DNA from: Bradyrhizobium sp.
GTDB taxonomy: Bacteria > Pseudomonadota > Alphaproteobacteria > Rhizobiales > Xanthobacteraceae
Direction: 5' to 3'
NCBI RefSeq assembly: GCF_027451485.1
Contig: NZ_DAIDJE010000175.1
Location: 1,032 to 65,031, forward strand
Length of the DNA: 64,000 nt
The notes under the pieces were generated by a model. It was not told the origin of the DNA and ran no database searches. It saw only the letters and a program-made list of their open reading frames with translations. Shown one piece after another: positions 7,790 to 35,213 of this stretch; positions within the stretch are counted from its first letter, which is position 1, and each line of letters begins with the position of its first letter. The position numbers and the translations under genes are program-made.

Positions 7790-7938
7790 GGCGAGCTCCC
7801 AGCCTCAGGGCCTTTTGGCTGTTGATTACCGCAATGTTACCGCGAGCGCGCCTGGCAAAAATCTCAAATCTTGGCGACGTGAGCCGATGTTTTGGGATAT
7901 TTTACCAATCCATCCCCTTCTATAAATGGTTCATCCCA

Positions 7939-8400: not shown

Positions 8401-8418
8401 TGGCAGCCGTCGTCGAGA

Positions 8419-9291: not shown

Positions 9292-9550
9292 AATCCCGCG
9301 CAGCGGCCGGTCATGCCGCGACGGAACCGAGGGAACCGGCTCGTTCTCCGGCCGGCGCCGCTCACGCTCAGGCGATGTCGCGCGGTCCAGCCTTGCAGCA
9401 GTTGCGGAAGGTGTCACGTTTTGAACTCGAGGCCGAACCAGGCGAATCGGGCGAACCCACCAAAGAGCCCGATCACGCCGCGGCGACAAGGCCCGAAAAC
9501 AGGAAGCGGATATGCGGCGTGCGTCGGGGCGGCGCTTCCACTGCGGGCCC

Positions 9551-10390: not shown

Positions 10391-10445
10391 GAAAGCCTCT
10401 ATGGTGCGGGGAACGCAGCATAGAGGAGAGAGCTTCCGGGGTCGA

Positions 10446-13148: not shown

Positions 13149-13161
13149 GGCACTTGTTCGA

Positions 13162-14379
13162 TCATGCGGCAGCAGCCAAGCTTGCCGCGGCACGGCCGAA
13201 CATCATGTCTCTACGGACGCCTGCAATATTTTCGCGATTACGGATCAGTTCGAGGTACCAGCGTCCATCAGCCGTATCGCCGACCAGCACTGCGCCGGCG
13301 AGCCGGCCGTTCTCGATCACGAGTTTCTTGTAGGTACCGCGCCTGACATCGCTGAACACGATCGCTTCGCTCCGGTCCGTCGCTAAAAACTCGCCTGCGG
13401 AAAACACGTTGACGCCGGATACCTTGAGATTGGTGGCCACCACGCTGCCCTGATAGGCGGCGCTGCGTCCGGCCAGATGCTGCGCCAGCGCCTTCGCCTG
13501 CTCGTAGGCCGGCTCGACCAGGCCATAACAGATGCCGCGGTGTTCGGCGCATTCGCCGAGCGCAAAGATGTCATCGGTGCCGGTCTGAAGCCGGTCGTCG
13601 ACGACGATGCCGCGATTGACCGCAATGCCCGCCTCTTTCGCCAGCGCGACATTCGGACGGATGCCGGCGGCGAAGATTACCGCATCGGCATCGATCTGGC
13701 GCCCATCGGCAAGTTCGACGGCTTCTGCGCGGCTCTGCCCGAGGATGCGGGCCGTGTTCGCGTTGAGTAGAACGTCGATGCCTTTTTTCTCGACCAGCGA
13801 CTTAAGAAGCGCTGCCGCCGGCGCATCGAGCTGGCGCTCCATCAGCCGATCCATCAGGTGAAGCAGCGTGACCGGAGCGCCCGCCTTGGCAACGCCGTAC
13901 GCCGCTTCGAGGCCGAGCAGGCCGCCGCCGATGACGACCACACGCTTTTTCGCCGCCGCCAGCGCCAGCAACAGGTCGACGTCGCGGCTGTCGCGGAACG
14001 AGCTCACGCCGGAAAGCCCGGCGCCGGGCACGTCGAGGCGGAGCGGCGAGGATCCCGTTGCGAGCACCAGTTTTGAAAAGCCGACGCTCTCCTCGCCTGC
14101 GATCTTGAGCTCGCGGCGGCCGACGTCGATTTCACTGACGGCACAGCCATATTTCAACGTCACGCCGCGATCCCGCCACCAGCTCGCGGGCCTCAGCTCG
14201 ATTTCGTGGGAAGCCGTTTCGCCCGCGAGCACCGAGGAGAGCAGAACACGGTTATAGGCAAGCCTCGGCTCGTCGCCGATGACGGCTATCGCATAGCGTC
14301 CGAGCGCGACCCTGGCGAGTTCGTCGACCAGGCGGGCCGCGGCCATCCCGTTGCCGACGATGACGAGAGATTCGCTCAC
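13162..14379 (-). CDS. flp: FAD-dependent NAD(P)H oxidoreductase (NirB N-terminal-half-like; Flp)
   Basis: I prefer GTG 14379 (VSESLVIVGNGMAAARL) because AGGAG lies 7 nt upstream and it avoids overlap with the bjgb stop at 14390. Two dinucleotide-binding motifs (VGNGMAA, VIGGGLLGLE). Confidence 0.8.
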   Translation of the reverse strand: MSESLVIVGNGMAAARLVDELARVALGRYAIAVIGDEPRLAYNRVLLSSVLAGETASHEIELRPASWWRDRGVTLKYGCAVSEIDVGRRELKIAGEESVGFSKLVLATGSSPLRLDVPGAGLSGVSSFRDSRDVDLLLALAAAKKRVVVIGGGLLGLEAAYGVAKAGAPVTLLHLMDRLMERQLDAPAAALLKSLVEKKGIDVLLNANTARILGQSRAEAVELADGRQIDADAVIFAAGIRPNVALAKEAGIAVNRGIVVDDRLQTGTDDIFALGECAEHRGICYGLVEPAYEQAKALAQHLAGRSAAYQGSVVATNLKVSGVNVFSAGEFLATDRSEAIVFSDVRRGTYKKLVIENGRLAGAVLVGDTADGRWYLELIRNRENIAGVRRDMMFGRAAASLAAAA

Positions 14380-14389
14380 CTTCTTGCTC

Positions 14390-14815
14390 CTATTCGGCCG
14401 CCAGAGGCGTGCCATAGGCTTCGGAGGTCATGAAACCGGACAGCGTGCCGTAGGCCGTGGTCCACGCCGCCGCCACTTCAGATGTCCACTCCTCGCCAAG
14501 TCCCTTTTCCAGTGCCCACAGCAAGGCGGCACCTACCACGGGATAGTGCTCCGGCTTTGCGCCATAGCCGACGTGGCGTTTTGCCAGCGCGCTCGTCACC
14601 GGCAGAATCGAGGAGAGATCGCTCAGACCGTTGACCACGACCGCGAGCGTCGCCATCAACTTCTTCCTTTGTTCGGTCATGTCGGCGGGAAACATCGCCT
14701 TGACCTGCGGCGCGACCTCGAACAGGCGGTCGTAAAAGATGGCCGCCGCTTGATCGGAGATCGGCGCTACTTTCGAGAAGCTCTGCTGCACCAGTTTGAC
14801 TTGATCGGGTGTCAT
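14390..14815 (-). CDS. bjgb: Single-domain haemoglobin (Bjgb-type globin)
   Basis: 141 aa, MTPDQVKLVQQSFSKVAPI...FYDRLFEVAPQVKAMF...HVGYG. Globin fold signature. Sits between narK and flp as in Bradyrhizobium. AGGAGAAAG SD. Confidence 0.85.
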   Translation of the reverse strand: MTPDQVKLVQQSFSKVAPISDQAAAIFYDRLFEVAPQVKAMFPADMTEQRKKLMATLAVVVNGLSDLSSILPVTSALAKRHVGYGAKPEHYPVVGAALLWALEKGLGEEWTSEVAAAWTTAYGTLSGFMTSEAYGTPLAAE

Positions 14816-14909
14816 ATCTTTCTCCTGCCTGTTGCTTCTGCCGTCATCACGTTCGGTCTGCGGGCCGAGACCGATCTTGAAAGCCGCGCTTGCCCGACGG
14901 CGTCATGCT

Positions 14910-16292
14910 TCAGACGCGCGCTTGAGCAAGGCTCGTTGCACCCGCTTCCGCAGGAGTGCGGCGCAGATAGAACCACCACGTCATGGCGAGGCATATCGCG
15001 TAGAACCCGAGATAGATGACGAGCGCGAACTGCGGACCGCCGGTCATGGCGATCGACTTGCCGAAGCCGCTCGGGATAAAGTAGCCGCCGCAGGCGCCGA
15101 TCGCGCCGATAAAGCCGAGCGCCGCCCCGCTTTCAATGCTCGCGGTCTTGATCGCCAGCGCGCGGCCGGCCTCGCCCTTGCCTTGTGATTTGCGAAGGTT
15201 CTCCTCGCGGAAGATCGACGGGATCATCCGGTAGGTCGATCCGTTGCCGATGCCGGTGGTGACGAACAGGATCAGGAACATCACGAGGAAGCCGGCGAAC
15301 TCCTTGTTGCCGACGAAATAGATGACACCGATGGTGGCGGCGGCCATCGCGATGAAATTCCAGAACGTGATGATCGCGCCGCCGATCTTGTCGGCGAGCA
15401 GACCACCGAGCGGACGCGCGAGCGAACCGACCAACGGCCCGAGGAACGCAATGCCGATGGTGATCGCCGGAAACTGGGTCTTGATCAGCAGCGGAAACGC
15501 CGCCGAGTAGCCGATGAAGGATCCGAACGTTCCGACATAGATGAAGGACATGATCCAGGTGTGCTTGCGCCCGACGATGGCGACCTGGTCCTTGAACGAT
15601 GACTTCGCCGAGGTCAGGTTGTTCATGAAATAAACGGCGCCGAACAGGGCGACGATCAGCGGCAGGACCCACATCAAGCCGGCATTCTGAAGATAGACAC
15701 CCGATACCGGCGTCGCCTGATAGAGATTGATAAGACCGGCTTCCATCAGGATCGGCGTTATCAATTGAACGCTGGAAACGCCGATATTGCCGCCCGCCGC
15801 GTTCAGGCCCAGCGCCCAGCCCTTCATGCGGTCGGGATAGAAGAAGGAGATGTTGGCCATGCTGGAGGCGAAATTGCCGCCGCCAAGGCCGGCAGTCGAT
15901 GCCACCAGCAGCATCAGCCAGAACGGCGTCTCGGGATGGCTGACGAAATAAGCGAGCCCGAAGGTCGGGATAAAGAGCACGGAGGCGGAGAAGATCGTCC
16001 AGTTGCGGCCGCCGAACGTCGTCACCGCAAAGGTATAGGGAAAGCGCATCAGCGAGCCAATCAGGCCCGGAATGGCGACGAGCTGAAACAACTGATCGGT
16101 CGTATAGTGAAAGCCCGCTGCGGGAAGCTTGGTCGCAACGATGCTCCAGATCAGCCACACCGAAAATCCAATGTGCTCGGCCACGATCGACCAGATCAGG
16201 TTGCGGCGCGCGACCGCCTTGCCTTTGGTTTCCCAGAAACTGGGATCTTCGGGTTTCCAGTCTGAAATCCAGGTCGGGTCTTTCGTGCTCAT
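14910..16292 (-). CDS. narK: MFS nitrate/nitrite transporter NarK
   Basis: 460 aa, 12 hydrophobic segments, NarK/NasA-type N-terminus (DWKPEDPSFWETKGKAVARRNL), glycine-rich nitrate-signature-like GGNFASS / GGNIGVS. Confidence 0.88.
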   Translation of the reverse strand: MSTKDPTWISDWKPEDPSFWETKGKAVARRNLIWSIVAEHIGFSVWLIWSIVATKLPAAGFHYTTDQLFQLVAIPGLIGSLMRFPYTFAVTTFGGRNWTIFSASVLFIPTFGLAYFVSHPETPFWLMLLVASTAGLGGGNFASSMANISFFYPDRMKGWALGLNAAGGNIGVSSVQLITPILMEAGLINLYQATPVSGVYLQNAGLMWVLPLIVALFGAVYFMNNLTSAKSSFKDQVAIVGRKHTWIMSFIYVGTFGSFIGYSAAFPLLIKTQFPAITIGIAFLGPLVGSLARPLGGLLADKIGGAIITFWNFIAMAAATIGVIYFVGNKEFAGFLVMFLILFVTTGIGNGSTYRMIPSIFREENLRKSQGKGEAGRALAIKTASIESGAALGFIGAIGACGGYFIPSGFGKSIAMTGGPQFALVIYLGFYAICLAMTWWFYLRRTPAEAGATSLAQARV

Positions 16293-16435
16293 GGAGCTTC
16301 CTTTTGCGTGAAGGGGGCCTGGCGGGTCGCCATCCGAAGGCAGCGCAGCACGTTCCAGGCAAAGCCCGGTTGAACGCCCACTGGTCGGATGAATGGCTTT
16401 TCGGCGACGGCATCGATGGCGTCGGAAAGACGTTA

Positions 16436-16451
16436 TTCAAACCTCGTGCCA
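16436..16451 (-). promoter_or_regulatory. Candidate sigma-54 (-24/-12) promoter for narK operon
   Basis: The minus strand reads TGGCACGAGGTTTGAA. It matches TGGCACG-N4-TTGC with correct spacing except the final C (A here). It lies about 145 nt upstream of the narK ATG. Confidence 0.35.
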
Positions 16452-16540
16452 AGCCGCCGCATCGAGAAAAACGTCATCGTTTTAGACAGTTGCCAGGCTG
16501 GCCGACGATTTTTTCCGGCCGCCGAGCCGCATCCAAAATT

Positions 16541-16571
16541 TGCACCCGCACATTTGTTGTGCGCAGCACAA
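16541..16571. promoter_or_regulatory. GCAC/GTGC-rich element with 15-bp palindrome TTGTGCGCAGCACAA (candidate enhancer/activator site)
   Basis: TGCACCCGCACATTTGTTGTGCGCAGCACAA. The palindrome at 16557-16571 has 6-nt arms and lies about 105-120 nt upstream of the sigma-54-like element, as expected for a bEBP (NtrC-type) UAS. Confidence 0.3.
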
Positions 16572-16951
16572 ACACTGGGCAGATGCGCTTAAAGCAGATG
16601 CGCCTAAATAAAGAGTGGGAGCCGAAGCGGAAGTCATCCGCTGATCGCAGCGTCAGCAGGCCCGTGCGCAGTCTCTACACATGCTAATTGCGACTCGACG
16701 CGGGAGTTCGAGGCGGGTCCCTGTCCTTCCAAAACCGCGGCGTCAGATCGCTTCGCCGCTCAATCGCCAATCAACGACGACTGAGACTCGCTGGCCGAAA
16801 AGCGATCGTCGGGCCGCTGCGCCGGTCCGACGCTCATCAGTATCTCATGATCGAGTGCGGACTGGGCCACGCTACGATGAAAGCGCGCTCACCTACTACG
16901 GCCGAAGACGAACTGGGCGTCTCCCCGCAAACAGAGAGATGAACAAGCTCC

Positions 16952-17863
16952 TCAAGCATCTTCGGTCACCGCCGCCAGCGGCTTCGGCGCAACGCCCTGA
17001 CCCGGCTTGAGGCGGAATTCGTAGGTCATGAGATGCCAGGGTGACGGCGCTGGTTTGCCGTCCGGCATGGTCGGGTCGGTGCGCTTTTCGACCTTGGCGA
17101 TCAATTCGTTCTTGACGCCGAACACGACATCGCTGTCGATGTATTTGTCGCCTTCGACAAAGACATGCGTGACCAGCGGTTCATGGCCGGGCGCATTGAC
17201 CAGGAAGTGCACGTGCGCCGGCCGCATCGGATGACGGTGCAGCGCCAGGATCATCTGTCCGACCGGACCATCAGTCGGGATCGGGTAACTGCAAGGCAAG
17301 ATGGTGCGGAAAAAGAACCGACCGTCGGCGTCGGTGACAAAGCGCCCGCGTGAGGATGGGCCCGCAGTCTCATAATCCGCCTTCTGTGAATCGTACCAGC
17401 CGTCATCGTCTGCATGCCAGATGTCGACTGGAACGTTCGCCAGCGGTTTGCCGTTCAGGTCAGTAACCCGGCCCTGCACGAACATCTTCTCGCCTTCCAG
17501 ATTGGGCGAAACGTCGGTGCCATGCGGCATCACCTTGTGCTCGCCGACATAGAACGGCCCGAGCACGGTGGTCTCGGTCGCGCCTTCGCGCTCGCGATGA
17601 TTGACGGCGTCCACCAGCATCGAGACGCCGAGCACGTCGGAAAGAAGGATGAACTCCTGCCGGCTCGGCGTGCATTTCTGGCCGACACGGGTGAGGAAAT
17701 CGATCGCATATTCCCATTCGGCGAAAGTGAGATCGGTTTTGCGAACGAATTCGTGCAACGATTTCGTCAATTCCTCCATCAGGAATTTCACCCGCGGATT
17801 CTGCACTTCCTCGAAGCTCTTGACGACGGCGGCGGTGAGTTCGGTCTCGTTGAATTGGGGCAT
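16952..17863 (-). CDS. Intradiol ring-cleavage dioxygenase (hydroxyquinol/catechol 1,2-dioxygenase-like)
   Basis: Trimmed to ATG 17863 (MPQFNETELTAAV...). N-terminal catechol-dioxygenase helical domain, then GPFY, GRV.D..G.P, IWHAD, RPAHVHF iron-ligand region. Confidence 0.85.
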   Translation of the reverse strand: MPQFNETELTAAVVKSFEEVQNPRVKFLMEELTKSLHEFVRKTDLTFAEWEYAIDFLTRVGQKCTPSRQEFILLSDVLGVSMLVDAVNHREREGATETTVLGPFYVGEHKVMPHGTDVSPNLEGEKMFVQGRVTDLNGKPLANVPVDIWHADDDGWYDSQKADYETAGPSSRGRFVTDADGRFFFRTILPCSYPIPTDGPVGQMILALHRHPMRPAHVHFLVNAPGHEPLVTHVFVEGDKYIDSDVVFGVKNELIAKVEKRTDPTMPDGKPAPSPWHLMTYEFRLKPGQGVAPKPLAAVTEDA

Positions 17864-21713: not shown

Positions 21714-21929
21714 TTACCCGGCGCCCCTCAGCTTGCACGAGGTCGAGCAAGTTACGGTGGTGCCCCGGCCGCATTTTGAACAGACCGCCATACACTGATT
21801 CAGATCCTTCGGATTGTAACCAGGGAACAGATTGATCGCGCAACTGTTCGAGGTCGAACCTGTAACGTCGGTCTCTTGCTGGCAACCGGCCATGATCATC
21901 AGGGCGAGAATGGCAATGATAGGTCGCAT
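21714..21929 (-). CDS. Cys-rich mini-lipoprotein (71-aa precursor)
   Basis: MRPIIAILALMIMAGC has a signal peptide plus lipobox (MAG/C). GGGAGA SD. The mature 56 aa carries 6 further Cys (potentially 3 disulfides). Lies downstream of, and co-directional with, the DUF2235 gene. Confidence 0.65.
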   Translation of the reverse strand: MRPIIAILALMIMAGCQQETDVTGSTSNSCAINLFPGYNPKDLNQCMAVCSKCGRGTTVTCSTSCKLRGAG

Positions 21930-22142: not shown

Positions 22143-24500
22143 TTATTTGACGAAAAAGCTAATGCATCCGCTGTTATCGCCATAGAACGGCTGCCATCCG
22201 GGAATTGGGGTCACGGCATCATTGACGTAAAGAAAGAGTTCTCCCGGCACCTTCGGCGAAACGTATTCGGAGATTCTCGTGAACCTCGGGTCTGGATCTG
22301 GTTCCAGGAAATCGAACTGACTGCCAATGGCTCCATAGCGGGCGACCGGCTGAAACCAGGGCTGTCCGTAATGTCGCTTCAGAGGCAGCAGTAGCGCGCT
22401 CCAAATCATCGCAGTAACGCTCAGCGTTGAACCGCGTTCGTTGCGGAACGTATCGTACCCCCGCGCATCCGTAGAAACACTGCCGTTGACAAGCCTTTCG
22501 TCGGGAGCCGCGGTACAGGAGCCCGCCGACTTGTAGTTCTTGTATTCCCTATTAAGTTCGGCGATGTCGGGCGTGGTCCAGACGAAATATCGTTGGAGAC
22601 GTGCGAGTCGGTAGCCGGTTGCAAAACACGGATTGGAAACATCGAACGAAAACAGGATCCCGTTGGCGGGAATGTCCCTCAAGTTCTTGCTACCGCTGAA
22701 CTCGCAAACGAACCCGGCGTCATCAACGGCGGTGAACAACCAGTGGCTCGGGATGGTCACGATCGCATAGACGATGGCAACGGCCGATAAAGCGGGTCCC
22801 AGGTAGTCGCGCCAGCTTGACCGAATGCCGACCAAGACTCGATCTTTGACATTGAGCTCGTTGGTGGGACGTTGTGCCGGCGCCGGCTGACGATGCGCGA
22901 GCGCGTCTCTCCAGAGCAAGCCCATTTTGTCGGTAATGTCAGCCGCAATTCTTACACTGCTCCACAAAAGCACCAGCAGCAGCATGGCCAGGATCAGAAA
23001 CATCCACGGATACTGCGCGTATGAAACGAGCCAGGATGAGGCCCATCCCGGCAAGAACCCACTGCCTGTCTGGATGAGATCGGAAACCCACGCGAGTCTG
23101 TTTCGATTGACCAGAAGGACATTGGCCCGGCCCGTCATCGGAAAGACGATGAAGAATGCGGTCGTCAGCACCGTCGCCAGATACAACAGGGAACGCAGAT
23201 AGACGCGCGGCCAGATCGCGCGCCGCTCTAATACCACTCTTGCCTCGGCATCCGCCTGCCGCTCAAAAAGAACGGGCGAGCCGGCATCTGACGTTGGCAA
23301 AGCGTCGATCCTGAAATCAGAATCGATGCCGTTTGGCTTTGGCACGTTGATGACGATCTCATAATTGTGCGGAATGCCGATCGGGGCATAAACATGTGCG
23401 TTGTTTTTGATGCGCCAAAATACGCTTTCGTGAATCTTTGGCGCCGCCACATATACTTCATCATTCAGTGTTCGCGAGAAACGCTCGTTGCACAGCCGCG
23501 AAATTCGTCTCGGGCCGTAGCGATAGTAACTGCCAAATCCGCTCCGCGAATCGTACAGCCGCCCGTCCTTGTCCTGCGCTTCCTTGATCTCGGCAATGGC
23601 CTCTGGATTGGCGGTCTTGAAGGTCAAACCGCAAGCCTTGGCTTCCTGGGCGATCCAGTACAGCGGTATTTGTGCAAGGGAATCGTCCGGATAACCGCCG
23701 CCGACATTCGCATGAACGCCGGCAAACCAGACCTGGGAGATCCTCTCGTCTTTGGTAAACCTGGATGAACCTGTGTGCGGACTTTCATTTCTCTCATTCC
23801 ACAGCACCGGGTGGAATGTCGTCCGTTCGTCGTCAAGCGACAACGCGTGGCATGCCCGCCGGACGCTTGGGTGCAGGGTGTGCGAGGGGATTTCCAGCGG
23901 CCACAGCCATTGGCTGACGCCACGCGTCATCTCGTCGATCGGCAGCCCGTAGGCTGCAACGGTGTCCCAGACGCCGAGAAAACGGATAACGGGTACGTTC
24001 CGATCCGGAGGCACAACACTTTTCTCCGGTGCATCTTTGCCAAGCCATTGCTTGATCCGTTTAAGGATCAGGCTCCAATTCGTATGGAAATGCCTCTTGT
24101 GATAGGCGCGATAGGCCTTGTGCGCTTGCCGATCCAGTTCCGTCTCGGAGATGGCGCCTGCGGGGATAAGCCCTTGATCGAGGATCAGGCCGATCACCAC
24201 CCGAATGGTGAAGGCGCCACGGCTGAATCCGAAGCCATAGATTTCGTCATTCGCTTCGCGGACATTTCGGCAAGCGAATTTATAGAGCGAGATCACGTTC
24301 CGGCGGAGGCCCACGCCGAACGCCCCGCCCAACAGAGCCAGCGGCTTGAACGACGACGTGCCGACCCCGTCATCGTAATATGCGATCTGATCATTGCTCG
24401 ACAGCTCCAGCGCAGAGAACATGCGCCAAACATTTGTTCGCCAGAAGCTCGCCGAGGAATTACCCGTCCCGTCCGAGAGCAAAATGATGCGCCTGGGCAT
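22143..24500 (-). CDS. Membrane-anchored DUF2235 (Tle1-like alpha/beta hydrolase/phospholipase) protein with unassigned C-terminal domain
   Basis: Trimmed to ATG 24500 (MPRRIILLSDGTGN). DUF2235 hallmarks: DGTGN, GFGFSRGA (GxSxG), FLGVWDTVAAYG, HALSLDDERTTFHP. Three to four hydrophobic segments lie at about 22739-23198. A roughly 195-aa C-terminal domain ends GELFLYVNDAV...FYGDNSGCISFFVK. Confidence 0.8.
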   Translation of the reverse strand: MPRRIILLSDGTGNSSASFWRTNVWRMFSALELSSNDQIAYYDDGVGTSSFKPLALLGGAFGVGLRRNVISLYKFACRNVREANDEIYGFGFSRGAFTIRVVIGLILDQGLIPAGAISETELDRQAHKAYRAYHKRHFHTNWSLILKRIKQWLGKDAPEKSVVPPDRNVPVIRFLGVWDTVAAYGLPIDEMTRGVSQWLWPLEIPSHTLHPSVRRACHALSLDDERTTFHPVLWNERNESPHTGSSRFTKDERISQVWFAGVHANVGGGYPDDSLAQIPLYWIAQEAKACGLTFKTANPEAIAEIKEAQDKDGRLYDSRSGFGSYYRYGPRRISRLCNERFSRTLNDEVYVAAPKIHESVFWRIKNNAHVYAPIGIPHNYEIVINVPKPNGIDSDFRIDALPTSDAGSPVLFERQADAEARVVLERRAIWPRVYLRSLLYLATVLTTAFFIVFPMTGRANVLLVNRNRLAWVSDLIQTGSGFLPGWASSWLVSYAQYPWMFLILAMLLLVLLWSSVRIAADITDKMGLLWRDALAHRQPAPAQRPTNELNVKDRVLVGIRSSWRDYLGPALSAVAIVYAIVTIPSHWLFTAVDDAGFVCEFSGSKNLRDIPANGILFSFDVSNPCFATGYRLARLQRYFVWTTPDIAELNREYKNYKSAGSCTAAPDERLVNGSVSTDARGYDTFRNERGSTLSVTAMIWSALLLPLKRHYGQPWFQPVARYGAIGSQFDFLEPDPDPRFTRISEYVSPKVPGELFLYVNDAVTPIPGWQPFYGDNSGCISFFVK

Positions 24501-24793
24501 GAAATACCCCCTGCACGTGCCGAACTGAATTGACGGGACGCAATCATCCCGGAGCGGCAATCGCGAATCACGATCGATGAAACAGGCAGCAGTTCAAATT
24601 TGAGCTCCGGCATTATGCCCATTGCAAGGCAATGCGCACGTCTCCTTTGTCCCGGCCGGACCGTCCCATACTTTCTTGCTCCGCAAGACGGGTTGCCGAA
24701 GCGCGATACGGGTCTGAGCCCCGGCCGCCATTGCGGCTTCCGCCAACCGGTGCTTGATTGCGGGCGTAAAGCAATCCACCCGAAGGCTCCCCA

Positions 24794-27225: not shown

Positions 27226-27549
27226 TCACTCCGGCGAATTGCCGCCGTGGAAGCGGCCGAAGTGGCGCGCGGCGAACAGGCCCATCAGGAGAAAACCCAA
27301 CCCCAAGGCCACGGCATCGAGGGTGGAGCGCAGGTCGAAGGCGCCGACGCGGCATATCAAAACATAGGCGACCGCCAAATTGAGCGCGCCCCAGGCCGCG
27401 TTGACGGTCGAGGTGGAAAGCCCCTCGCCGGGCGGCCTGGCGAAGGGGCTTTGGAAGGGACGTCCCATCGAGCCGCTGGCGAAGTGCGGAACGGCATTGG
27501 AAAGAAACGCGCCGCCGAAAAAATAGGACACGAGATACAGCCAGTCCAT
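27226..27549 (-). CDS. Small integral membrane protein (107 aa), unknown family
   Basis: 3 hydrophobic segments. 4-nt gap to the MFS start and 21 nt after the marR stop, so operonic. Confidence 0.55.
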   Translation of the reverse strand: MDWLYLVSYFFGGAFLSNAVPHFASGSMGRPFQSPFARPPGEGLSTSTVNAAWGALNLAVAYVLICRVGAFDLRSTLDAVALGLGFLLMGLFAARHFGRFHGGNSPE

Positions 27550-27570
27550 GGTCCACCTTCCCTTGTCTGA

Positions 27571-28023
27571 TCAGAAGTCGGCCAGCTTGCCGAGCAGCTT
27601 GACGGCGGCGGCAAGTTGCTTTCGTTCGCGGGGCGTCAGTTGCGCCTGGATGGCGCGGAACAGCCAGTCCTCGCGCGCCAGCCGGCCGGTCTTCAGCACT
27701 TTGACAAAGGACGGCGTGAGGCTGACAAAGGTCTGCCGGCCGTCTTCGGGGTCAGCCTTCCCGCTCACCGCGCCTGCCGCTTCCAGCGCCGCCACCGTGA
27801 TCCGCATCGACTGCGGACGCACGCCCTCGGCGCGCGCCAGCATCGACACGGTCGCCGGGCCATTGCGCTCCAGCCTGAGCAAGACAGATTTCTGCGCGTC
27901 GTTGAAATCCCCAACGTCGGCCTGCTCGCGCAAACGGCGCTTCAATCTGGAAAACACGCTCCGCAACTCGCCCACCAGGGCGACGGCTTGTGTTGCTTCG
28001 GAACTCGGGCGGGTCGCGCTCAT
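27571..28023 (-). CDS. MarR-family transcriptional regulator
   Basis: ORF 27571..28374 trimmed to ATG 28023 (MSATRPSSEATQAVALVGELRSVFSRLKRRL...). Winged-helix LARAEGVRPQSMRITVAALEAAG. The removed upstream part lies in a repeat element. Confidence 0.8.
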   Translation of the reverse strand: MSATRPSSEATQAVALVGELRSVFSRLKRRLREQADVGDFNDAQKSVLLRLERNGPATVSMLARAEGVRPQSMRITVAALEAAGAVSGKADPEDGRQTFVSLTPSFVKVLKTGRLAREDWLFRAIQAQLTPRERKQLAAAVKLLGKLADF

Positions 28024-28176
28024 GAGCCCAACGCTGGCATATATACAGCCTACCTGTACAGTTTTTCTGTTAATCACATTCACGCTAGGGACCGGCGGTT
28101 TGCTCTTGACAGCGATCGGCGCCGAACAACTGATTTGCCCGTCGTGCCAATCTGTCGCAGGCGCTTTGCTTGTGCC

Positions 28177-28453
28177 GTCGGGCAAATCAGTGGCTTTACT
28201 TCCCCGTCTCGCACCCGAAGAGAGGGGCGTATCGCGATCGTCACGAACGTTGGGTGCGGGATGCGATGGACGCTTGTCGTGCGCAAGACGAACGCACGAT
28301 GCGCGGACGGCGAAGTCGTGTGGTCCTGATATCCCGACGCCGATATCAAGTTGGCGCGATGCTGCGGCAATCACGCCCGCGATGGTGGCAAGAAAGCCCG
28401 GTCACCAAGGAGAGCACGGAATAAGTCGTAAACTGTCGCGCGGGGAATGCCGG
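28177..28453 (-). repeat. Dispersed ~275-nt non-coding repeat, copy A (reverse orientation)
   Basis: The reverse complement aligns end to end with 46577-46848: CCGGCATTCCCCGCGCGA..., ...AAGCGTCCATCGCAT..., ...GTGACGATCGCGA..., ...TGATTTGCCCGAC. I estimate about three quarters identity from hand alignment. Confidence 0.7.
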
Positions 28454-28546
28454 AACGTTTTCGGCGAACCTGCGGTGACTACACTCGTACGCTTTTCTTT
28501 TGCGTGCGAGGCTGCGGGCGCGCCAAACGCCCGGCATTCCCCGCGC
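28438..28546. repeat. 16-nt perfect inverted repeat GCGCGGGGAATGCCGG / CCGGCATTCCCCGCGC, 77-nt spacer
   Basis: Arms at 28438-28453 and 28531-28546. The same 16-mer occurs at 46577-46592. Confidence 0.7.
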
Positions 28547-28626
28547 CCTCTTCTCATCAAGAGGGACAATGTTTTGAGAAACCCGGGCGCGAAATCGCGC
28601 CGCGGGAGGGATGGATCATGTCTTCC

Positions 28627-28732
28627 CGTCATTCCGGGGCGCGCGTTAGCGCAAACCCGATATCCATGTGCCCACGTGACGCGAGGAGAAATGGCTTCCG
28701 GGCTCGATGCTTCGCATCGCCCCGGAATGACG
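28627..28732. repeat. 15-nt inverted repeat CGTCATTCCGGGGCG / CGCCCCGGAATGACG, 76-nt spacer (REP-like)
   Basis: Arms at 28627-28641 and 28718-28732. The GTCATTCCGGGGCGCG motif is a common Bradyrhizobium intergenic repeat as far as I recall. Confidence 0.65.
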
Positions 28733-28753
28733 AGAAGTGAAAGGGTGCCTAAC

Positions 28754-29833
28754 CTATAACGCCGCCAGCACGGCGTTGCCGATGTCGGCGGTGCCGTTCT
28801 TGCCGCCGAATTCCGTCGGCCTGATGCCTTGCGCATAGGCCTTGTCGACCGCGCGTTCGATGCGTTCGCCGGCCTCCGCCGCGGTTTCGAGGCCATGTTT
28901 GCCGGCGAGCCAGTCCAGCATCATCGCGGCAGAGAGGATCATGCCGGTCGGGTTGGCCTTGCCCTGCCCCATGATGTCGGGCGCGGTGCCATGACAGGGC
29001 TGGAACACCGCATAGCGGTCGCCGATGTCCGCCGACGGCGCCATGCCCATGCCGCCGACAAGGCCTGCGGTCAGGTCGGAGAGGATGTCGCCGAACATGT
29101 TCTCCGTGACCATGACGTCGAAGTCCCAGGGGCGCTTCACCAGCAAGGCCGAACAGGCATCGACGTAAAGACGGTCGGCCTTCACATCCGGATGGCGTTT
29201 GGCGGCTTCGTCAAAGATTTCACGAAAGAACGCGAAGGCCTTGAAAACGTTGGCCTTGTCGACGCAGGTCAGCGCGCCGGGCCGACCGCGCTTCTTGCGC
29301 CGCTCGGCGAGTTTGAAGGAAAACTCGAACAGCCGCTCGGAGGTCTTTCGCGTGATGACGAGGGTCTCCCGCGCATCCTCATGGGTGATCACGCCTTTTC
29401 CCATCGAGGCGAACAGGCCTTCGGTGGATTCGCGGATCACCACAAGGTCTATGCCGCGCTGTTCCGCGCCGACGATCGGACTCGGCACGCCGGGAATGAG
29501 GCGTGCCGGGCGCACCCCTGCGTAGAGATCGAACAGCATGCGCAGTTCGATCTGCGGCGCGATCTCCGTGTTGTCGGGATAGCGCACGGACGGCAGGCCG
29601 CAGGCGCCGAGCAGGATGGCATCCGCCTCCTCGCACAGCCGGATCGTGGAATCCGGCATCGACCTGCCGGTCTCGCGGTAATGGTTCGCCCCGGCCGGCG
29701 CCTCGGTGAAACGGAAGCTCAGGTGCGTGGTTTTCTCGATTTGGCGCAGGATTTCCAGCGCCGGCTCCATGACTTCGGGACCAATGCCGTCGCCGGGAAG
29801 CACGGCAATATGGAACGCAGTATTGGCAGACAT
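28754..29833 (-). CDS. Isocitrate/isopropylmalate dehydrogenase-family enzyme (tartrate dehydrogenase/decarboxylase or D-malate dehydrogenase-like)
   Basis: Trimmed to ATG 29833 ([21 protein letters not shown]). NMFGDILSD and the metal-binding Asp region are present. Confidence 0.8.
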
Positions 29834-32320: not shown

Positions 32321-32523
32321 CGAGGAACTCCCCTTCTGGACTGGCTGACCGCCACCGATTCCGACGGGACACTAAAGCGAGCTGGCGGCGCAGAAAAGCG
32401 CACAGGCCAACGAGGCGCCGGTGAATCGCTGTTGATGCGGCAACTGCCTATGCGGTCGGCGGCATGGAGATTGGAACTGATCTTGCATAGATCGCGTTAG
32501 CGACGGCAGCGTGCGAGGGCGTT

Positions 32524-33942
32524 GTGCGAGTCCTGTTTGTTACGACGGAGATGGATGACTTTGTCCGGGTCGGAGGCCTGGCGGCCGTGTCCGCCGCTCT
32601 TCCCCGGGCACTCAGGCGCTGGACCGACGTCAGGGTCTTGCTTCCCGGCTACAGCGAAGTTGTCGAACAATTCACGCATATCGACATCGTCGGCCGGTCG
32701 CCGCCACTTGCGGAGATGCCGGCCTGCTCCCTTGGCCTCGGCGCGACGAAGGACGGCCTGCCGGTCTACGTGGCTTTGTGTCCAGAACTGTACGATCGGC
32801 CCGGCAATCCCTATGCCGACGAGAGCGGCCGCGACTGGCCGGACAACGATATCCGGTTCGCGCGCCTGGCCTCTGTCGCCGCTGAACTCGCCGCTGGCAA
32901 GCTGGACGAGAATTGGGCAGCCGAACTGGTCCACGCCAACGACTGGCAGGCGGCCCTTCTCCCGGCCTACCTCGCCTGGAACGGCAGCAAGATCCCGAGC
33001 ATCCTGACCATCCATAATCTGGCGTACCAGGGCCTGTTCGCGAAGGATTCGTTGCGACGGATCGGGGCGCCAGCGGACTCCTTTCACATCGACGGGCTCG
33101 AATTTTACGACAAGCTGTCGTTTCTCAAGGGCGGCCTCAACTATGCCTCGCATCTGACGACGGTCAGCGAGACCTATGCCAGGGAGATCACCACGCCCGA
33201 ACTCGGCTGCGGCCTCGAGGGCCTGCTTCGGCGCCGCTCGGACGCCGCGCAACTGACGGGCATCTTGAACGGCATTGACGAAAGCTGGGATCCGAGCGCC
33301 TGCACCCAGTTGGCCCAGCCCTTTGGCGCCGGCGACTGGGAGGGCAAACAGGCGAATGCGGACTACATCCGTCAGCAATTCGGACTTGCCTTGTCGCGCG
33401 GCCCCCTGTTCGGCCTCGTCGCACGTCTCGTACACCAGAAAGGTATCGACCTCGTGCTGTCGGCCACCGACGAAATCATCAATGGCGGCGGGCAGATCGT
33501 CGTCACCGGCCGCGGCGAGCCCGAAATCGAGCAAGCGCTGGTTGCCGCGCATCGGCGGCGGCCTGACGCCATCGGCGTTGCCATCGGCTTCAACGACGCG
33601 CAGGCGCGGCGGATATTCGCCGGCAGCGACTTCACGCTGATGCCCTCGCGGTTTGAGCCGTGCGGGCTGAGCCAGATGTACGCCCAGCGCTTCGGATCGT
33701 TGCCGATCGGCCACCAGACTGGCGGCCTCGCCGAGACGATTACCGATGGCGAAACCGGGTTTCTGTTCTCGCAACCCTCGACAGAGTCCTTCGTCGGCGG
33801 CCTTCGTCGCGCCTTTTCGGCCTTCTTTGCGAAGGATCGCCTCGATGCGATGCGCCGGAGCGCAATGGCACGGTCCTTCAGTTGGAGCGTCTCGGCAGCC
33901 TGTTACGGCGCGCTCTATCGCAAGACCGTCGCGCTTAGGTGA
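32524..33942 (+). CDS. glgA: Glycogen/starch synthase (GT5, GlgA paralog) with RVGGL instead of K-x-GGL
   Basis: 472 aa from GTG 32524: MRVLFVTTEMDDFVRVGGLAAV..., HANDWQAALLPAYL, TIHNLAYQG, PSRFEPCGLSQMY, TGGLAETI. No glgB/C/P/X adjacent. Confidence 0.85.
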   Translation: MRVLFVTTEMDDFVRVGGLAAVSAALPRALRRWTDVRVLLPGYSEVVEQFTHIDIVGRSPPLAEMPACSLGLGATKDGLPVYVALCPELYDRPGNPYADESGRDWPDNDIRFARLASVAAELAAGKLDENWAAELVHANDWQAALLPAYLAWNGSKIPSILTIHNLAYQGLFAKDSLRRIGAPADSFHIDGLEFYDKLSFLKGGLNYASHLTTVSETYAREITTPELGCGLEGLLRRRSDAAQLTGILNGIDESWDPSACTQLAQPFGAGDWEGKQANADYIRQQFGLALSRGPLFGLVARLVHQKGIDLVLSATDEIINGGGQIVVTGRGEPEIEQALVAAHRRRPDAIGVAIGFNDAQARRIFAGSDFTLMPSRFEPCGLSQMYAQRFGSLPIGHQTGGLAETITDGETGFLFSQPSTESFVGGLRRAFSAFFAKDRLDAMRRSAMARSFSWSVSAACYGALYRKTVALR

Positions 33943-33956
33943 CGGTATTACCAACC

Positions 33957-35213
33957 TTACCTTCGGCCGCTTTGCGGGGGCGGCCGGGTTTCCGGCATCG
34001 CCAGCCAGATGACGACAAGGCCGACCGCCGCGACTGTGGCAAGCCCGGCAAACGCAACGCTGCTGCCAAACTTGTCGCTGGCGTAGCCGGCGAGCACGGT
34101 GCTCAGTGACGCGCCGATCCCGGTGGCGGTACCGACGACACCTTGGGCGAGGTTGAAATGGCCGCTCCCGAAGGCGACGTCCGCAACGACGAGCGGAATC
34201 AGGACGCTCAATACTGCCGCAGTGACGCCGTCGAGTATCTGGACCGCAACCAGAAAATAAGGATCGCGGACGACCGCAAACATGATGCCCCGAAGCGCAA
34301 GCGCGCCAAATCCGAACATAAGCAAAGGCCGCCTTCCCCATACCTGCGCCGTGCGTCCGACCGAGGGCGATGTCAGCGCGACGATCGCCTGCGGCACGAT
34401 GATACAGGCGGCGATGAGAACGGTGGCCCATTGGCTCGATCGGGTGGTGACGATGCCTGCCATCAGCGGTAACATCGAGGCGTTGGCCATTTGCAACAGC
34501 AGAATGCTGCCGGCAAAGATCAGAAGAGGACGCTGACGCAGCAAAACCAGCGCACTGGTCGATTTCGCGCTCGGCGCAGTCGGCGGCACGGATCCATGCG
34601 CGCGGGCGGCGTCGACCTCCCGTTCGCGGATGCGCGCCAGCGCGAGCAGGGTCGGAATTGCCAACGCGAAGGCGACGAGAAACACTGAACGGCTCGACAG
34701 CAGATAGCCGCAGGTCCCCATCAGGGCGGCGGCGACGCCGTTGCCAAGCGAGGCGAAGCGCGCGTTGCGTCCCAACCGCTCGCCGATCGCCCAAGGTCCC
34801 ACCAGACCAAGACTGATTGCGGCGATCGCCGGGCCAAGCACGCAACTGGCCGCGGCTTGCAGCGTTGCGGCGGCCGCGATCACCGGATAGATCGGCCATG
34901 CCGCATAGGCGAGCGCGGCGCATCCGATCGTCGCGATGGCAAGGCCCGCGACCAGACGCTCCGATTTCGCCGCATCGATAATCGCCCCGCCCGGCATCTG
35001 TCCGATCAAGGCGATGATGCTGCCGATCGAAAGGATCGAGCCGATCTCGACTTGCGTCCATTTCTGCGTAGTCAGGTAGACCGCAACAAACGGCCCGAAA
35101 CCGGTCTGCACATCCGCGAGAAAGAAGATGAACCAGTCGAGACCACGAAGACTTTCCCGCGAGGGATGCGGCAATGCATTTGGCGTCACCGGTTCGGAGT
35201 CAGAGCGAACCAT
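33957..35213 (-). CDS. MFS transporter (unknown substrate)
   Basis: About 12 hydrophobic segments. Start uncertain: ATG 35213 (MVRSDSEP...) or ATG 35291. Neither has a convincing SD. Confidence 0.7.
   Translation of the reverse strand: MVRSDSEPVTPNALPHPSRESLRGLDWFIFFLADVQTGFGPFVAVYLTTQKWTQVEIGSILSIGSIIALIGQMPGGAIIDAAKSERLVAGLAIATIGCAALAYAAWPIYPVIAAAATLQAAASCVLGPAIAAISLGLVGPWAIGERLGRNARFASLGNGVAAALMGTCGYLLSSRSVFLVAFALAIPTLLALARIREREVDAARAHGSVPPTAPSAKSTSALVLLRQRPLLIFAGSILLLQMANASMLPLMAGIVTTRSSQWATVLIAACIIVPQAIVALTSPSVGRTAQVWGRRPLLMFGFGALALRGIMFAVVRDPYFLVAVQILDGVTAAVLSVLIPLVVADVAFGSGHFNLAQGVVGTATGIGASLSTVLAGYASDKFGSSVAFAGLATVAAVGLVVIWLAMPETRPPPQSGRR

Follow-up and report, generated by a model that had tools for sequence, protein, structure and literature searches.

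We report that a 785-aa protein encoded in a 64-kb stretch of Bradyrhizobium DNA (64,000 nucleotides in all, hereafter the window) carries the catalytic module of Tle1-type phospholipase effectors in what is predicted to be a multi-pass protein resident in the inner membrane, whose C-terminal domain is extracytoplasmic. The gene is intact and forms, by itself, a cassette that was acquired horizontally; it belongs to a clade of ~785-aa proteins whose most likely use is in genetic conflict, either for defence of the abortive-infection type or for exclusion. We regard the architecture and the topology reading, taken together, as very probable. Genomic context suggests an inner-membrane phospholipase that is signal-gated and acts on its own cell, probably as an effector in conflict or defence, and we propose this reading tentatively, with slightly less than even confidence. 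The name DUF2235 is now read almost automatically as "T6SS Tle1 effector": its mentions in the literature searched are T6SS-centred or incidental, and some databases name the family itself "T6SS phospholipase effector". The family is widespread in soil Alphaproteobacteria and lacks a secretion context there, so these T6SS effector annotations are misleading. The initial annotation, made from the sequence alone, had described a DUF2235 hydrolase fused to a membrane anchor and suggested a defence or envelope role; its observation is confirmed overall and its interpretation is partly supported.

The longest form of the reading frame (22143..24560, reverse strand) starts from a TTG. The ATG at 24500 is the start in all 31 aligned homologs (N-terminus MPRRIILLSDGTGN), which sets the protein length at 785 aa; a Shine-Dalgarno-like AGGGGG lies 8 nt upstream of it, and the stop codon is at 22143-22145. 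The protein is 100% identical to the NCBI entry "DUF2235 domain-containing protein [Bradyrhizobium sp.]". Table 1 lists the features of the gene.

Table 1. Features of the membrane-anchored DUF2235 gene, in window coordinates (KD, Kyte-Doolittle; AF2, AlphaFold2)
Feature	Position	Strand	Evidence or remark
Complete CDS, membrane-anchored DUF2235 protein	22143..24500	(-)	785 aa + stop; ORF list, translation
5' leader/promoter stretch travelling with the gene	24501..24627	(-)	blastn vs L082/L001
Residues 1-290, DUF2235/Tle1-like alpha/beta-hydrolase domain	23631..24500	(-)	PF09994; probably cytoplasmic
Ser93 codon, nucleophile of GFSRG	24222..24224	(-)	aligns with PaTle1 S235; kept 85/85
Asp179 codon, catalytic acid (WDTV)	23964..23966	(-)	aligns with PaTle1 D279; kept 85/85
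His263 codon, catalytic base (GVHANVGGGY)	23712..23714	(-)	aligns with PaTle1 H377; kept 85/85
Residues 291-430, conserved middle region and small beta unit	23211..23630	(-)	alignment columns, AF2
TM helix 1, residues 433-455	23136..23204	(-)	19-residue KD peak 1.91 (433-458); AF2 helix 430-456; homolog mean KD 1.78
TM helix 2, residues 497-519	22944..23012	(-)	19-residue KD peak 2.39 (491-524); AF2 helix 498-534; homolog mean KD 1.69
TM helix 3, residues 567-589	22734..22802	(-)	19-residue KD peak 1.77 (565-593); AF2 helix 551-594; homolog mean KD 1.61
Residues 591-785, C-terminal beta-sandwich, Cys 599, 625, 662, 779	22146..22730	(-)	AF2; probably periplasmic

The N-terminal part matches PF09994 (T6SS_Tle1-like_cat / DUF2235) over residues 3-286 (E 3.6e-67, 227.1 bits against a cut-off of 27), and the match spans positions 1-287 of the 287-position model. 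The hallmarks listed by the initial annotation are all present (DGTGN at 10, GFSRG at 91, WDTV at 178 and HALSLDDER at 218), and the serine codon lies exactly where it had been placed. The Ser93-Asp179-His263 triad, set in the GxSxG, (F/W)DTV and GxHxxxGGGY motifs, is invariant in 85 of 85 relatives, so that loss of the catalytic residues on alignment, which the initial annotation had named as a refutation, was not seen. The triad of P. aeruginosa Tle1 (PaTle1) is S235-D279-H377 (PMC10395195). Together these data support a predicted Ser-Asp-His hydrolase of the DUF2235/Tle1-like type with an intact triad. When the full model was compared with the PDB using Foldseek, the top matches were PaTle1 (4o5p; E 9e-5, prob 1.0), TleB (9j3f) and lpg2422 (4m0m), with low TM-scores (~0.2), an effect of the multi-domain query. 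A PDB sequence search with the full-length family profile returned nothing at E <= 0.01, and the N-domain alone gave weak, motif-level matches only (4o5p, phmmer E 0.15), so the tie to Tle1 structures rests on Pfam and Foldseek.

Following the catalytic domain, the middle region contains the invariant blocks DKDGRLYDSRSG...YRYGPR and PKIHESV...NAH.YAPIGIP (alignment A1); residues 298-328 are invariant, yet their pLDDT is below 50. The next part holds three hydrophobic segments, all modelled as long helices by AlphaFold2 and hydrophobic in 32 of 32 aligned homologs (mean KD 1.6-1.8 over 23 residues). The initial annotation had counted three to four such helices at nt 22739-23198; the position was right (nt ~22734-23204), and the number is three, not four. 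The stretch 456-496 has a mean KD of -0.10. Conservation of the three helices speaks against the possibility, raised earlier, that the segments do not span the membrane, and it also led us to reject a soluble, secretable T6SS Tle1 effector (helices 433-455, 497-519 and 567-589). The protein has no signal peptide, which is why we place the lipase domain and the middle region in the cytoplasm, and loop 2 carries more K+R on average than loop 1 (6.9 vs 4.0). Judging from hydropathy, charge bias and cysteine patterns, the lipase domain is most likely cytoplasmic and the C-terminal domain periplasmic, the topology that had been suggested at the outset.

The unassigned C-terminal domain of ~195 aa noted earlier is real: AlphaFold2 folds it confidently as a beta-sandwich (pLDDT 86, pTM 0.85), and it has no family match in Pfam, NCBIfam or PADLOC. 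Its cysteines number exactly two or four, at fixed columns; C599 is kept in 85/85 and C625 in 84/85 family proteins, while 15 relatives have C662 together with C779 and the other 70 have neither (85 in total). These fixed pairs, one of them gained or lost jointly, argue together with the missing signal peptide for a periplasmic C-domain and a cytoplasmic lipase, and the C-domain is probably disulfide-stabilised. Foldseek searches with this domain gave nothing significant against the PDB (best E 0.069; generic jelly-rolls such as C1q/TNF, CUB and CBM) or against the viral structures of BFVD (best E 0.013). Of the beta-sandwich or lectin-type module proposed earlier, the generic beta-sandwich stands and the lectin part comes down to a motif of 28 columns. 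The C-terminal end (ELFLYVNDAV..PG..FYGDNSGCISFFV) resembles a segment of LecA/PA-IL (hhalign, 46% identity over these columns), and the LecA-like C-domain of EclA is found at Foldseek rank 20. We rejected a PA-IL/LecA lectin domain (hhalign probability 4%; EclA-C Foldseek E 0.37, TM-score ~0.25; no Pfam match), and the resemblance is one of motif level, with homology to LecA not established.

The fusion of membrane helices and C-terminal domain is a conserved family architecture and not a one-off, as the survey of homologs proposed in the initial annotation now indicates: this half is matched in 638 clusters at 50% identity, at ~residues 400-750 of 700-930-aa proteins, and the two long ones checked carry PF09994. 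A different architecture for the C-terminal module was considered and rejected, the short proteins that match the last ~80 residues being mostly gene fragments of the same architecture.

The family falls into two clades, of ~741 aa and ~785 aa, with the window gene in the latter (the long clade). In Bradyrhizobium, Nitrobacter and relatives the ~741-aa clade stays at a single place on the chromosome, and 33 of 45 scored loci show a housekeeping synteny (LON-N, sugar dehydrogenase, PanE, cytochrome c and DsbA-like genes; neighbours also include glucose/sorbosone dehydrogenase, DUF2239, GST and UbiH-like genes). This synteny is found in 0 of 20 locus entries of the long clade, which is mobile, as a one- or two-gene cassette. 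The second gene, which we call the partner, encodes a ~190-aa four-helix membrane protein without a Pfam family match; it lies 0-44 bp downstream on the same strand in most long-clade loci and is found nowhere outside them. Several intact long-clade genes lack it (the window gene and those in L082, L006, L091 and L092), and an HMM of eight partners found no remnant in the six-frame translation of the window, even at E 10. The window copy is thus a solo cassette that has lost its partner.

The limits of the cassette can be seen by blastn against the locus of an 83%-identical homolog (L082/L001): the match is confined to 22146-24627, i.e., the CDS plus 127 bp upstream, and no homology is found downstream of the CDS. 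GC3 of the window gene is 0.68, as compared to 0.79-0.83 in most flanking genes. The dN/dS of 0.068 against a 79%-identical homolog in L002 indicates that the window copy is under strong purifying selection. We therefore consider it highly improbable that the gene is a non-functional relic, i.e., a cassette decaying after loss of the partner. The missing partner, with no detectable remnant, and the ~670 bp downstream of the gene that hold no annotated gene would suit such decay, but the frame is full length with every invariant residue intact, selection is evident from the L002 comparison, and the nearest relative (L082, 83% identical) is likewise partner-less and intact.

The same partner gene bears on a reading in which defence plays no part, that of a selfish addiction or toxin-immunity module, in which the lipase would be the toxin and the partner its antidote, the pair would stabilise islands, and the window copy would be an orphan toxin, harmless through low expression or need of a trigger. 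The tight same-strand pairing, a partner found only there and the frequent toxin-antitoxin and mobile-element genes nearby are what such a module would show. We judge it improbable nevertheless, since an obligatory antidote is hard to reconcile with several intact partner-less genes, one of them (the window copy) under purifying selection, and since the elaborate, conserved periplasmic domain would have no role in it.

The genomic context of the long clade suggests genetic conflict. Neighbours include type II CBASS (E1/E2/JAB), AbiEi/Eii and an integrase in L081; type II CBASS, DUF4238-Pers and an integrase adjoining tRNA-Phe in L085; AbiE and IS elements, with MobA or ParB, in L083 and L088; an Xre-RES toxin-antitoxin pair and a serine recombinase in L082; a recombinase and an integrase in L091; and phage portal and TerL genes in L092. 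In total, long-clade loci contain type II CBASS in two loci, AbiE in four (L081, L083, L088 and L002, the last by AbiEi homology only), DUF4238-Pers in one and Xre-RES in one. In the short clade, a type III CBASS operon lies 138 bp upstream of the family gene in L062. Around the window copy there is no recognisable defence island. Its neighbours within +/-10 kb are, by Pfam, metabolic genes and an XRE regulator; they are not conserved beside homologs, save for unrelated enoyl-CoA hydratase paralogs. No integrase family was found in +/-10 kb or in the scanned window ORFs, no tRNA in the 64-kb window, and no convincing shared operator in an alignment of the regions upstream of long-clade loci. 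The defence-island survey thus places the close relatives in defence or mobile islands and the window locus outside any recognisable one. The earlier guess of a defence effector gains contextual support from these relatives; counting against it, the window protein matches 0 PADLOC-DB v2.0.0 families at E <= 1 and the sister clade sits in housekeeping synteny.

That sister clade is one ground for another reading, a housekeeping envelope enzyme, i.e., a phospholipase, lysophospholipase or acyl-hydrolase of the inner membrane that is regulated and, on a periplasmic cue, recycles or remodels membrane lipids, with the window gene an extra, laterally acquired copy. It would account for the single chromosomal position of the ~741-aa clade, the strong purifying selection and fully conserved triad, the metabolic neighbours of a partner-less window copy, and the one MAG that carries two copies (L024 and L073). 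We think it rather unlikely for the window gene, whose clade is never found in that synteny, moves as a one- or two-gene cassette and recurs near CBASS, AbiE, toxin-antitoxin, integrase, recombinase and prophage genes; nor would a housekeeping enzyme call for a four-helix partner of its own that is tightly linked and yet gained and lost. For the ~741-aa clade itself, the housekeeping synteny makes a physiological role a better fit than defence, and should this core clade turn out to remodel lipids, bacteria that fix nitrogen or nitrify would have a regulated phospholipase that is new.

We also compared the protein with Tle1 effectors, for which the comparators were P. aeruginosa Tle1 (PA3290 / PDB 4o5p), EAEC Tle1 (6sjl), V. 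cholerae Tle1Vc and Xanthomonas TleB (9j3f). It shares with them PF09994, the triad in common motifs and the best structural matches. Tle1 effectors are soluble, loaded onto VgrG, injected into the periplasm of a rival and neutralised by periplasmic Tli1; the window protein, in contrast, has three membrane helices and an extracytoplasmic C-domain, no T6SS neighbours in the examined loci, ~16% identity to PaTle1 over the structural alignment, and a lipase domain predicted to stay in the producer's own cytoplasm. Pfam searches found no T6SS family in +/-10 kb of the window gene, and no T6SS genes occur among the 27 window ORFs scanned, which include all those of at least 540 aa bar one overlapping ORF; within this scope the result agrees with the earlier statement that vgrG, hcp, PAAR and other T6SS genes are missing. 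The 11 annotated homolog loci (L081-L091) likewise contain no T6SS family and give no sign that homologs are routinely encoded in T6SS clusters. A 71-aa lipoprotein-like unannotated ORF lies 214 bp downstream of the window gene and has no counterpart in 80 homolog loci. A periplasmic Tli1-type immunity gene immediately downstream was rejected, as this ORF is the only candidate in the window and the linked gene of the relatives encodes a four-helix membrane protein.

An interbacterial toxin, i.e., an orphan Tle1-type effector of the T6SS or another secretion system whose gene lies apart from those for secretion and whose immunity protein would be the membrane protein encoded downstream, is accordingly very unlikely. 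DUF2235 is known experimentally only from T6SS phospholipase effectors, the small downstream gene resembles an effector-immunity pairing, and the 71-aa ORF could be taken for an immunity candidate in the window. However, an effector would not be built with three central membrane helices and an extracytoplasmic domain at its C-terminus, neither the scanned window ORFs nor the 11 annotated loci contain PAAR, MIX, VgrG, Hcp or an adaptor, the 71-aa ORF lacks a counterpart in the 80 homolog loci, and the similarity to PaTle1 is low by both structural alignment and phmmer.

CBASS effectors include the patatin-like phospholipase CapV and transmembrane effectors such as Cap15. The proposed likeness to the CBASS membrane effectors is that of a cell-autonomous effector destroying the producer's own inner membrane, and CBASS lies beside the family in three loci. 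The window protein differs in having a DUF2235 and not a patatin fold, in showing no cyclic-nucleotide-sensing domain and in placing its putative sensor in the periplasm. A CBASS effector was rejected: no cyclase (CD-NTase) occurs in the scanned window ORFs or +/-10 kb, Pfam finds no sensing domain, a patatin or NucC effector is already present in the CBASS operons of L081, L085 and L062, and CBASS is missing from the surroundings of most family members. Two phospholipases that respond to membrane state, PlaF of the P. aeruginosa inner membrane and OMPLA/PldA of the outer membrane, offer a further comparison, also for the housekeeping reading; the likeness we propose is that of a phospholipase A that resides permanently in the producer's envelope and stays silent until it receives a membrane or envelope signal. 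They are unrelated to the window protein in fold and architecture: PlaF spans the membrane once and has a periplasmic catalytic domain, and OMPLA is a beta-barrel activated by dimerisation. Neither is known to carry a separate beta-sandwich outside the cytoplasm or to have a mobile clade borne on islands.

In the signal-gated effector that we favour, a phospholipase A would be kept silent on the cytoplasmic side of the inner membrane of its own cell. An envelope event (phage attack, envelope damage or a ligand) might be registered by the periplasmic domain and the conserved periplasmic loop 456-496 (this step is pure conjecture), and the long TM2 and TM3 helices, reaching into the cytoplasm, would relay the signal. 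The released lipase would then hydrolyse inner-leaflet phospholipids, and the cell would depolarise. That the lipase acts on the inner leaflet is an assumption, since the reported toxicity of known Tle1 enzymes is exerted from the periplasm. The four-helix partner could serve as an in-membrane inhibitor or co-sensor, and the window copy, having lost it, would act alone if it is active at all. In its most specific form, the long clade and its partner would be an uncatalogued two-gene anti-phage system (abortive infection or exclusion), in which the periplasmic beta-sandwich senses phage from outside and activates a Tle1-type phospholipase facing the cytoplasm, which then destroys the inner membrane of the producer, the window gene being a partner-less derivative; we consider this possible but, on balance, doubtful. 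Most known defence sensors are cytoplasmic. If the mobile clade and its partner are a defence system, they would represent an additional class of phospholipase effectors, one coupled to a periplasmic sensor, and a tractable system in which to study how an enzyme able to destroy a membrane is silenced in its own; if the anti-phage reading is true, a fold known from T6SS toxins would have been turned into a suicide effector that is self-directed and gated from outside to inside.

Among 129 neighbour ORFs compared with PADLOC, we found AbiEi (three), AbiEii, JAB (three) and E1-E2 (two). A control set of short-clade neighbours also matched PADLOC, with one real CBASS III and many generic families (such as kinases and helicases), so that these counts give no clean measure of defence enrichment. 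Two long-clade neighbour ORFs match the PADLOC TRIP13 model. As for carriage on other elements, the family shows one distant match on a Sinorhizobium plasmid (26% identity) and one on a prophage-like contig of IMG/VR.

The lipase gene of the window encodes a protein with a Tle1-type catalytic triad, three transmembrane (TM) helices and a C-terminal domain with paired cysteines, and it lies outside any T6SS context; its clade is mobile, linked to a partner gene and found in conflict islands (coordinates are listed in the table). We assigned the gene a product of 785 aa, because the ATG at 24500 is the start in 31 out of 31 aligned homologs (M-P/A-R-R-I...) and an AGGGGG run is found 8 nt upstream of it; the first codon of the minus-strand ORF in the ORF listing (22143..24560) is TTG. 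Residues 3-286 form a complete PF09994 domain (T6SS_Tle1-like_cat, formerly DUF2235; E 3.6e-67), and searches against NCBIfam and PADLOC gave no match. The DUF2235 motifs quoted in the initial annotation were all found where it had placed them, the nucleophile Ser codon lies at exactly the 24222-24224 that it had given as approximate, and its observation on this gene (DUF2235 domain, motifs, hydrophobic stretches and unassigned C-terminus) was borne out in full.

Using phmmer against PDB sequences, we obtained only weak matches, to PaTle1 (the P. aeruginosa T6SS phospholipase effector; 4o5p) and EAEC Tle1 (6sjl), in which the alignment is confined to blocks at the three catalytic motifs (GFSRG, (F/W)DTVAA and GVHxxVGGGY). 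The published PaTle1 triad S235-D279-H377 (PMC10395195) aligns with S93, D179 and H263 of the window protein, allowing for a 2-residue offset of the PDB chain; these residues, together with D10, G91 and G95, are each kept in all 85 distinct, full-length relatives from genomes. A full-length AlphaFold2 model (pLDDT 76.7, pTM 0.70) has significant Foldseek matches in PDB only to 4o5p chain B (E 9e-5) and chain A (E 1.5e-4); TleB 9j3f (E 4e-3) and Legionella lpg2422 (E 0.027) come next. The window protein genuinely belongs to the DUF2235 hydrolase superfamily, but is distant from the T6SS enzymes: identity to PaTle1 is about 16% over the structural alignment, and a family-profile search of PDB sequences gave no match at E 0.01. 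Residues 298-328 (DKDGRLYDSRSG...YYRYGPR) are almost invariant across the family, with D310, K311, D312, G313, Y316, S318, R319, G321, Y326, R327, G329, P330 and R331 near-invariant in or next to this segment. Despite this conservation its pLDDT is below 50, as is that of the loops around D179 and H263; the segment may act as a mobile lid, serve regulation or contact the membrane.

Three stretches (433-458, 491-524 and 565-593) exceed a 19-residue Kyte-Doolittle mean of 1.75, and AlphaFold2 places long helices at residues 430-456, 498-534 and 551-594. The three 23-residue helix cores have a mean hydropathy of 1.6-1.8 among 32 homologs, and the stretch between TM1 and TM2 (456-496) is not hydrophobic (-0.10). 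The TM2-TM3 loop of the homologs contains 6.9 K+R on average, as compared to 4.0 in the TM1-TM2 loop, a bias that fits an N-in, C-out arrangement. Residues 1-430 should remain cytoplasmic, because the protein starts with the first beta-strand of the hydrolase fold and has no signal peptide. C599 is kept in 85 and C625 in 84 of the 85 relatives, and C662 and C779 occur together in 15 proteins and are missing together from 70 (no mixed cases). Fixed cysteines that are even in number and come and go as a pair look like disulfides of an extracytoplasmic domain, and we consider this pattern the strongest argument for the topology. We hold this architecture and predicted topology with high confidence.

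No family could be assigned to the last ~195 residues. Modelled alone with 19 homologs (pLDDT 86, pTM 0.85), they form a mainly-beta sandwich with two helices, in agreement with the beta-sandwich suggested by the initial annotation; its lectin-type suggestion found no such backing. The terminal motif ELFLYVNDAV..PG..FYGDNSGC..F is one that we take to resemble LecA, and hhalign of the domain against LecA covers only 28 columns (46% identity, probability 4%). Foldseek found nothing significant in PDB (best E 0.069; generic jelly-rolls such as C1q/TNF, CUB and CBMs, with a LecA-like EclA domain at rank 20, E 0.37) or in BFVD (best E 0.013).

The lack of T6SS context noted from the sequence holds beyond the window: no T6SS family was found in 11 Pfam-annotated homolog loci. 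The protein falls outside the functional class 'T6SS Tle1 effector', as none of the three defining features that we tested was found. That it is an orphan toxin for secretion is contradicted by its TM helices and by the lack of T6SS genes in the loci and window ORFs scanned, and we regard this as very improbable.

The whole window protein has thousands of DUF2235 relatives, and full-length relatives with 45-85% identity are found throughout Bradyrhizobium, Rhodopseudomonas and Tardiphaga. With the TM and C-terminal half as query, we found 638 clusters (at 50% identity), nearly all matching at about positions 400-750 of 700-930-aa proteins; PF09994 is present in both long proteins checked, and the short matching proteins that we checked were mostly fragments of the same architecture. 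In a scan of one genome per species, relatives were found in 402 species, and the best 80 of the 402 are full length (mostly Nitrobacteraceae and Xanthobacteraceae, with a few Beijerinckiaceae, Rokubacteriota and Terriglobales). Two full-length members with 43% identity to the window protein (L024 and L073) are on separate contigs of one MAG, so paralogous copies coexist in one organism.

The family splits into a clade of ~741 aa with two cysteines and a clade of ~785 aa with four, which includes the window gene. Out of 45 scored loci of the short clade, 33 share one conserved neighborhood (LON-N domain protein, glucose/sorbosone dehydrogenase, PanE, cytochrome c, DsbA-like, DUF2239, GST and UbiH-like), often near tRNA-Gly. 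Such core synteny favors a housekeeping enzyme of lipid remodelling, which we consider unlikely but the foremost of the alternatives. None of the 20 long-clade locus entries is in this synteny, and the window locus has no neighbors in common with other long-clade loci.

Most long-clade loci have an ORF of ~190 aa located 0-44 bp downstream of the lipase gene and on its strand. Four hydrophobic helices are predicted in this partner, whose PER, DxGFA and YGxxDxxED motifs are invariant and which has no Pfam family. Its whole family consists of 52 clusters, all named 'hypothetical proteins'; the contigs of several members equal those of lipase homologs in length (including an 81%-identical one) and are probably identical with them. 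Among the loci searched, every match of the partner HMM lies immediately downstream of a long-clade gene. The partner is present in L002, L003/81, L004/88, L016/83/84, L085/86 and L089, frameshifted in L008, partial in L007 and a stub in L005, and even at E 10 is found in neither the short-clade loci nor L001/L082, L006, L091, L092 or the window. The window lineage therefore most likely lost the partner. Intact copies that lack the partner and are under purifying selection weaken the case for a pure addiction or toxin-immunity module, which seems to us improbable.

Neighbors of long-clade genes include CBASS, Abi and toxin-antitoxin genes as well as recombinases and phage genes (see the table). 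PADLOC models searched against 129 neighbor ORFs of 12 long-clade loci gave 123 matching models, including AbiEi (3 ORFs), AbiEii, JAB (3) and E1-E2 (2). The TRIP13 model matched two ORFs of this set (best E 1.8e-70), and no TRIP13-like Walker A motif was seen among its ORFs. The intended control (142 neighbor ORFs of 12 short-clade loci) was not clean and also matched PADLOC models, namely type III CBASS in L062 (Pseudorhodoplanes) and otherwise generic ones (e.g. a PknB-like kinase scoring as PD-T4-6). Among the loci covered, the apparent link of the long clade to defense and mobile islands is recurrent and striking. The L062 operon is complete (TRIP13-, HORMA-, CD-NTase- and NucC-like ORFs, to which the summary PADLOC hits were assigned through Walker A and GS..DxD motifs rather than from HMM output for each ORF) and ends 138 bp upstream of the DUF2235-TM gene. 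In the metagenome contig L089, an 866-aa and a 1565-aa protein flank the lipase-partner pair, followed by metallophosphatase, FtsH-like AAA protease and RNase T genes; neither protein matches Pfam, nor the larger one PADLOC, and they may belong to another uncharacterised island system.

Positions of features in the window and in homolog loci, with identity of the lipase homolog to the window protein
Locus	Identity	Feature	Position	Strand	Remarks or neighboring genes
Window		lipase gene	22143-24500	-	
Window		residues 298-328	23517-23609	-	
Window		blastn similarity to L082/L001	22146-24627		
Window		71-aa ORF	21714-21929	-	214 bp downstream of lipase gene, same strand
Window		terminator-like hairpin	21551-21531	-	downstream of 71-aa ORF
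Window		XRE-family HTH regulator, 131 aa	21077-21472	+	convergent with lipase gene
Window		low-GC region	20.0-21.1 kb		beside XRE regulator
Window		403-aa ORF	27548-28759	+	
Window		854-aa ORF	32497-35061	-	
L081, B. genosp. A	66%	partner	12418-13014	+	type II CBASS (patatin, E1, E2, JAB), AbiEi/AbiEii, integrase
L085, Tardiphaga	60%	partner	12397-12987	+	type II CBASS (patatin, E1-E2-JAB), DUF4238-Pers, integrase abutting tRNA-Phe
L083/84	63%	partner (L083)	12410-12985	+	AbiEi/Eii, MobA, ISL3, secreted-type nucleases
L088	65%	partner	12420-12989	+	AbiEi/Eii, IS3, ParB_N protein
L082	83%				Xre-RES toxin-antitoxin pair, serine recombinase
L091	52%				serine recombinase, integrase
L092, IMG/VR	53%				phage portal, large terminase
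L002		partner	12387-12953	+	
L089		partner	12396-12974	+	
L089		866-aa protein	6838-9438	+	
L089		1565-aa protein	13062-17759	-	
L062		type III CBASS operon	6236-9863	+	
L062		DUF2235-TM gene	10001-12232	+	
L062		tRNA-Arg	12543-12619	-	just downstream of DUF2235-TM gene

A signal-gated inner-membrane phospholipase serving conflict or defense is a tentative reading of these features, plausible and just short of probable. The lipase would reside in the inner membrane of the cell that makes it, its catalytic domain on the cytoplasmic face, and would be kept off until the periplasmic domain and a highly conserved putative periplasmic loop (W471-SD...FLP...W490...Y494..P498) report an envelope event. 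TM2 and TM3, which continue as long helices into the cytoplasm, could transmit the signal; activation would then lead to hydrolysis of inner-leaflet phospholipids and membrane collapse, by analogy with Tle1 acting from the other side. The partner could be an in-membrane inhibitor or a co-sensor, and the most economical purpose of the mobile clade would be abortive-infection-type defense or exclusion. The proposed working would be similar to that of CBASS patatin and TM effectors, and of the envelope-resident phospholipases PlaF and OMPLA, whereas fold and wiring are unrelated. In the literature searched, papers mentioning DUF2235 describe no membrane-anchored form and no defense role, and databases list the family as 'DUF2235 domain-containing protein' or under the misleading name 'T6SS phospholipase Tle1-like effector'. 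The main interest is that the family may provide a two-gene membrane system missing from the catalogs and that it warns against reading DUF2235 as T6SS by default, held back by the ordinary context of the window copy and by a function that is putative.

By blastn, similarity to the locus of the closest relative (L082/L001) is limited to the CDS and a 127 bp leader, and stops exactly at the stop codon. The gene has a GC content of 56.7% and GC3 of 0.68 (most flanking genes have GC3 of 0.79-0.83; the window overall is 61.8% GC), and it is flanked by genes of metabolism (enoyl-CoA hydratase, MFS transporters, MarR regulator, DsbD-like, beta-lactamase-fold protein and dioxygenase). Compared with the 79% identical homolog in L002, dN/dS is 0.068, which contradicts a decaying relic, an explanation to which we give hardly any credence. 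The gene is a laterally acquired solo cassette that is apparently functional.

Two window ORFs without Pfam match at the thresholds used (854 and 403 aa) may be real genes or shadow ORFs of a GC-rich genome. The 71-aa ORF begins in the manner of a lipoprotein (MRPIIAILALMIMAGC...), contains eight cysteines, and could encode a small secreted lipoprotein or be a chance ORF; Pfam assigns it no family, a counterpart is missing from 80 homolog loci, and no gene is annotated at this place in the NCBI record. The low-GC region contains no convincing gene. At the DNA level, the XRE-family regulator shares 79.6% identity with a regulator gene of the ~317-kb plasmids of Bradyrhizobium sp. ISRA; genes related to it are frequent on plasmids of rhizobia.
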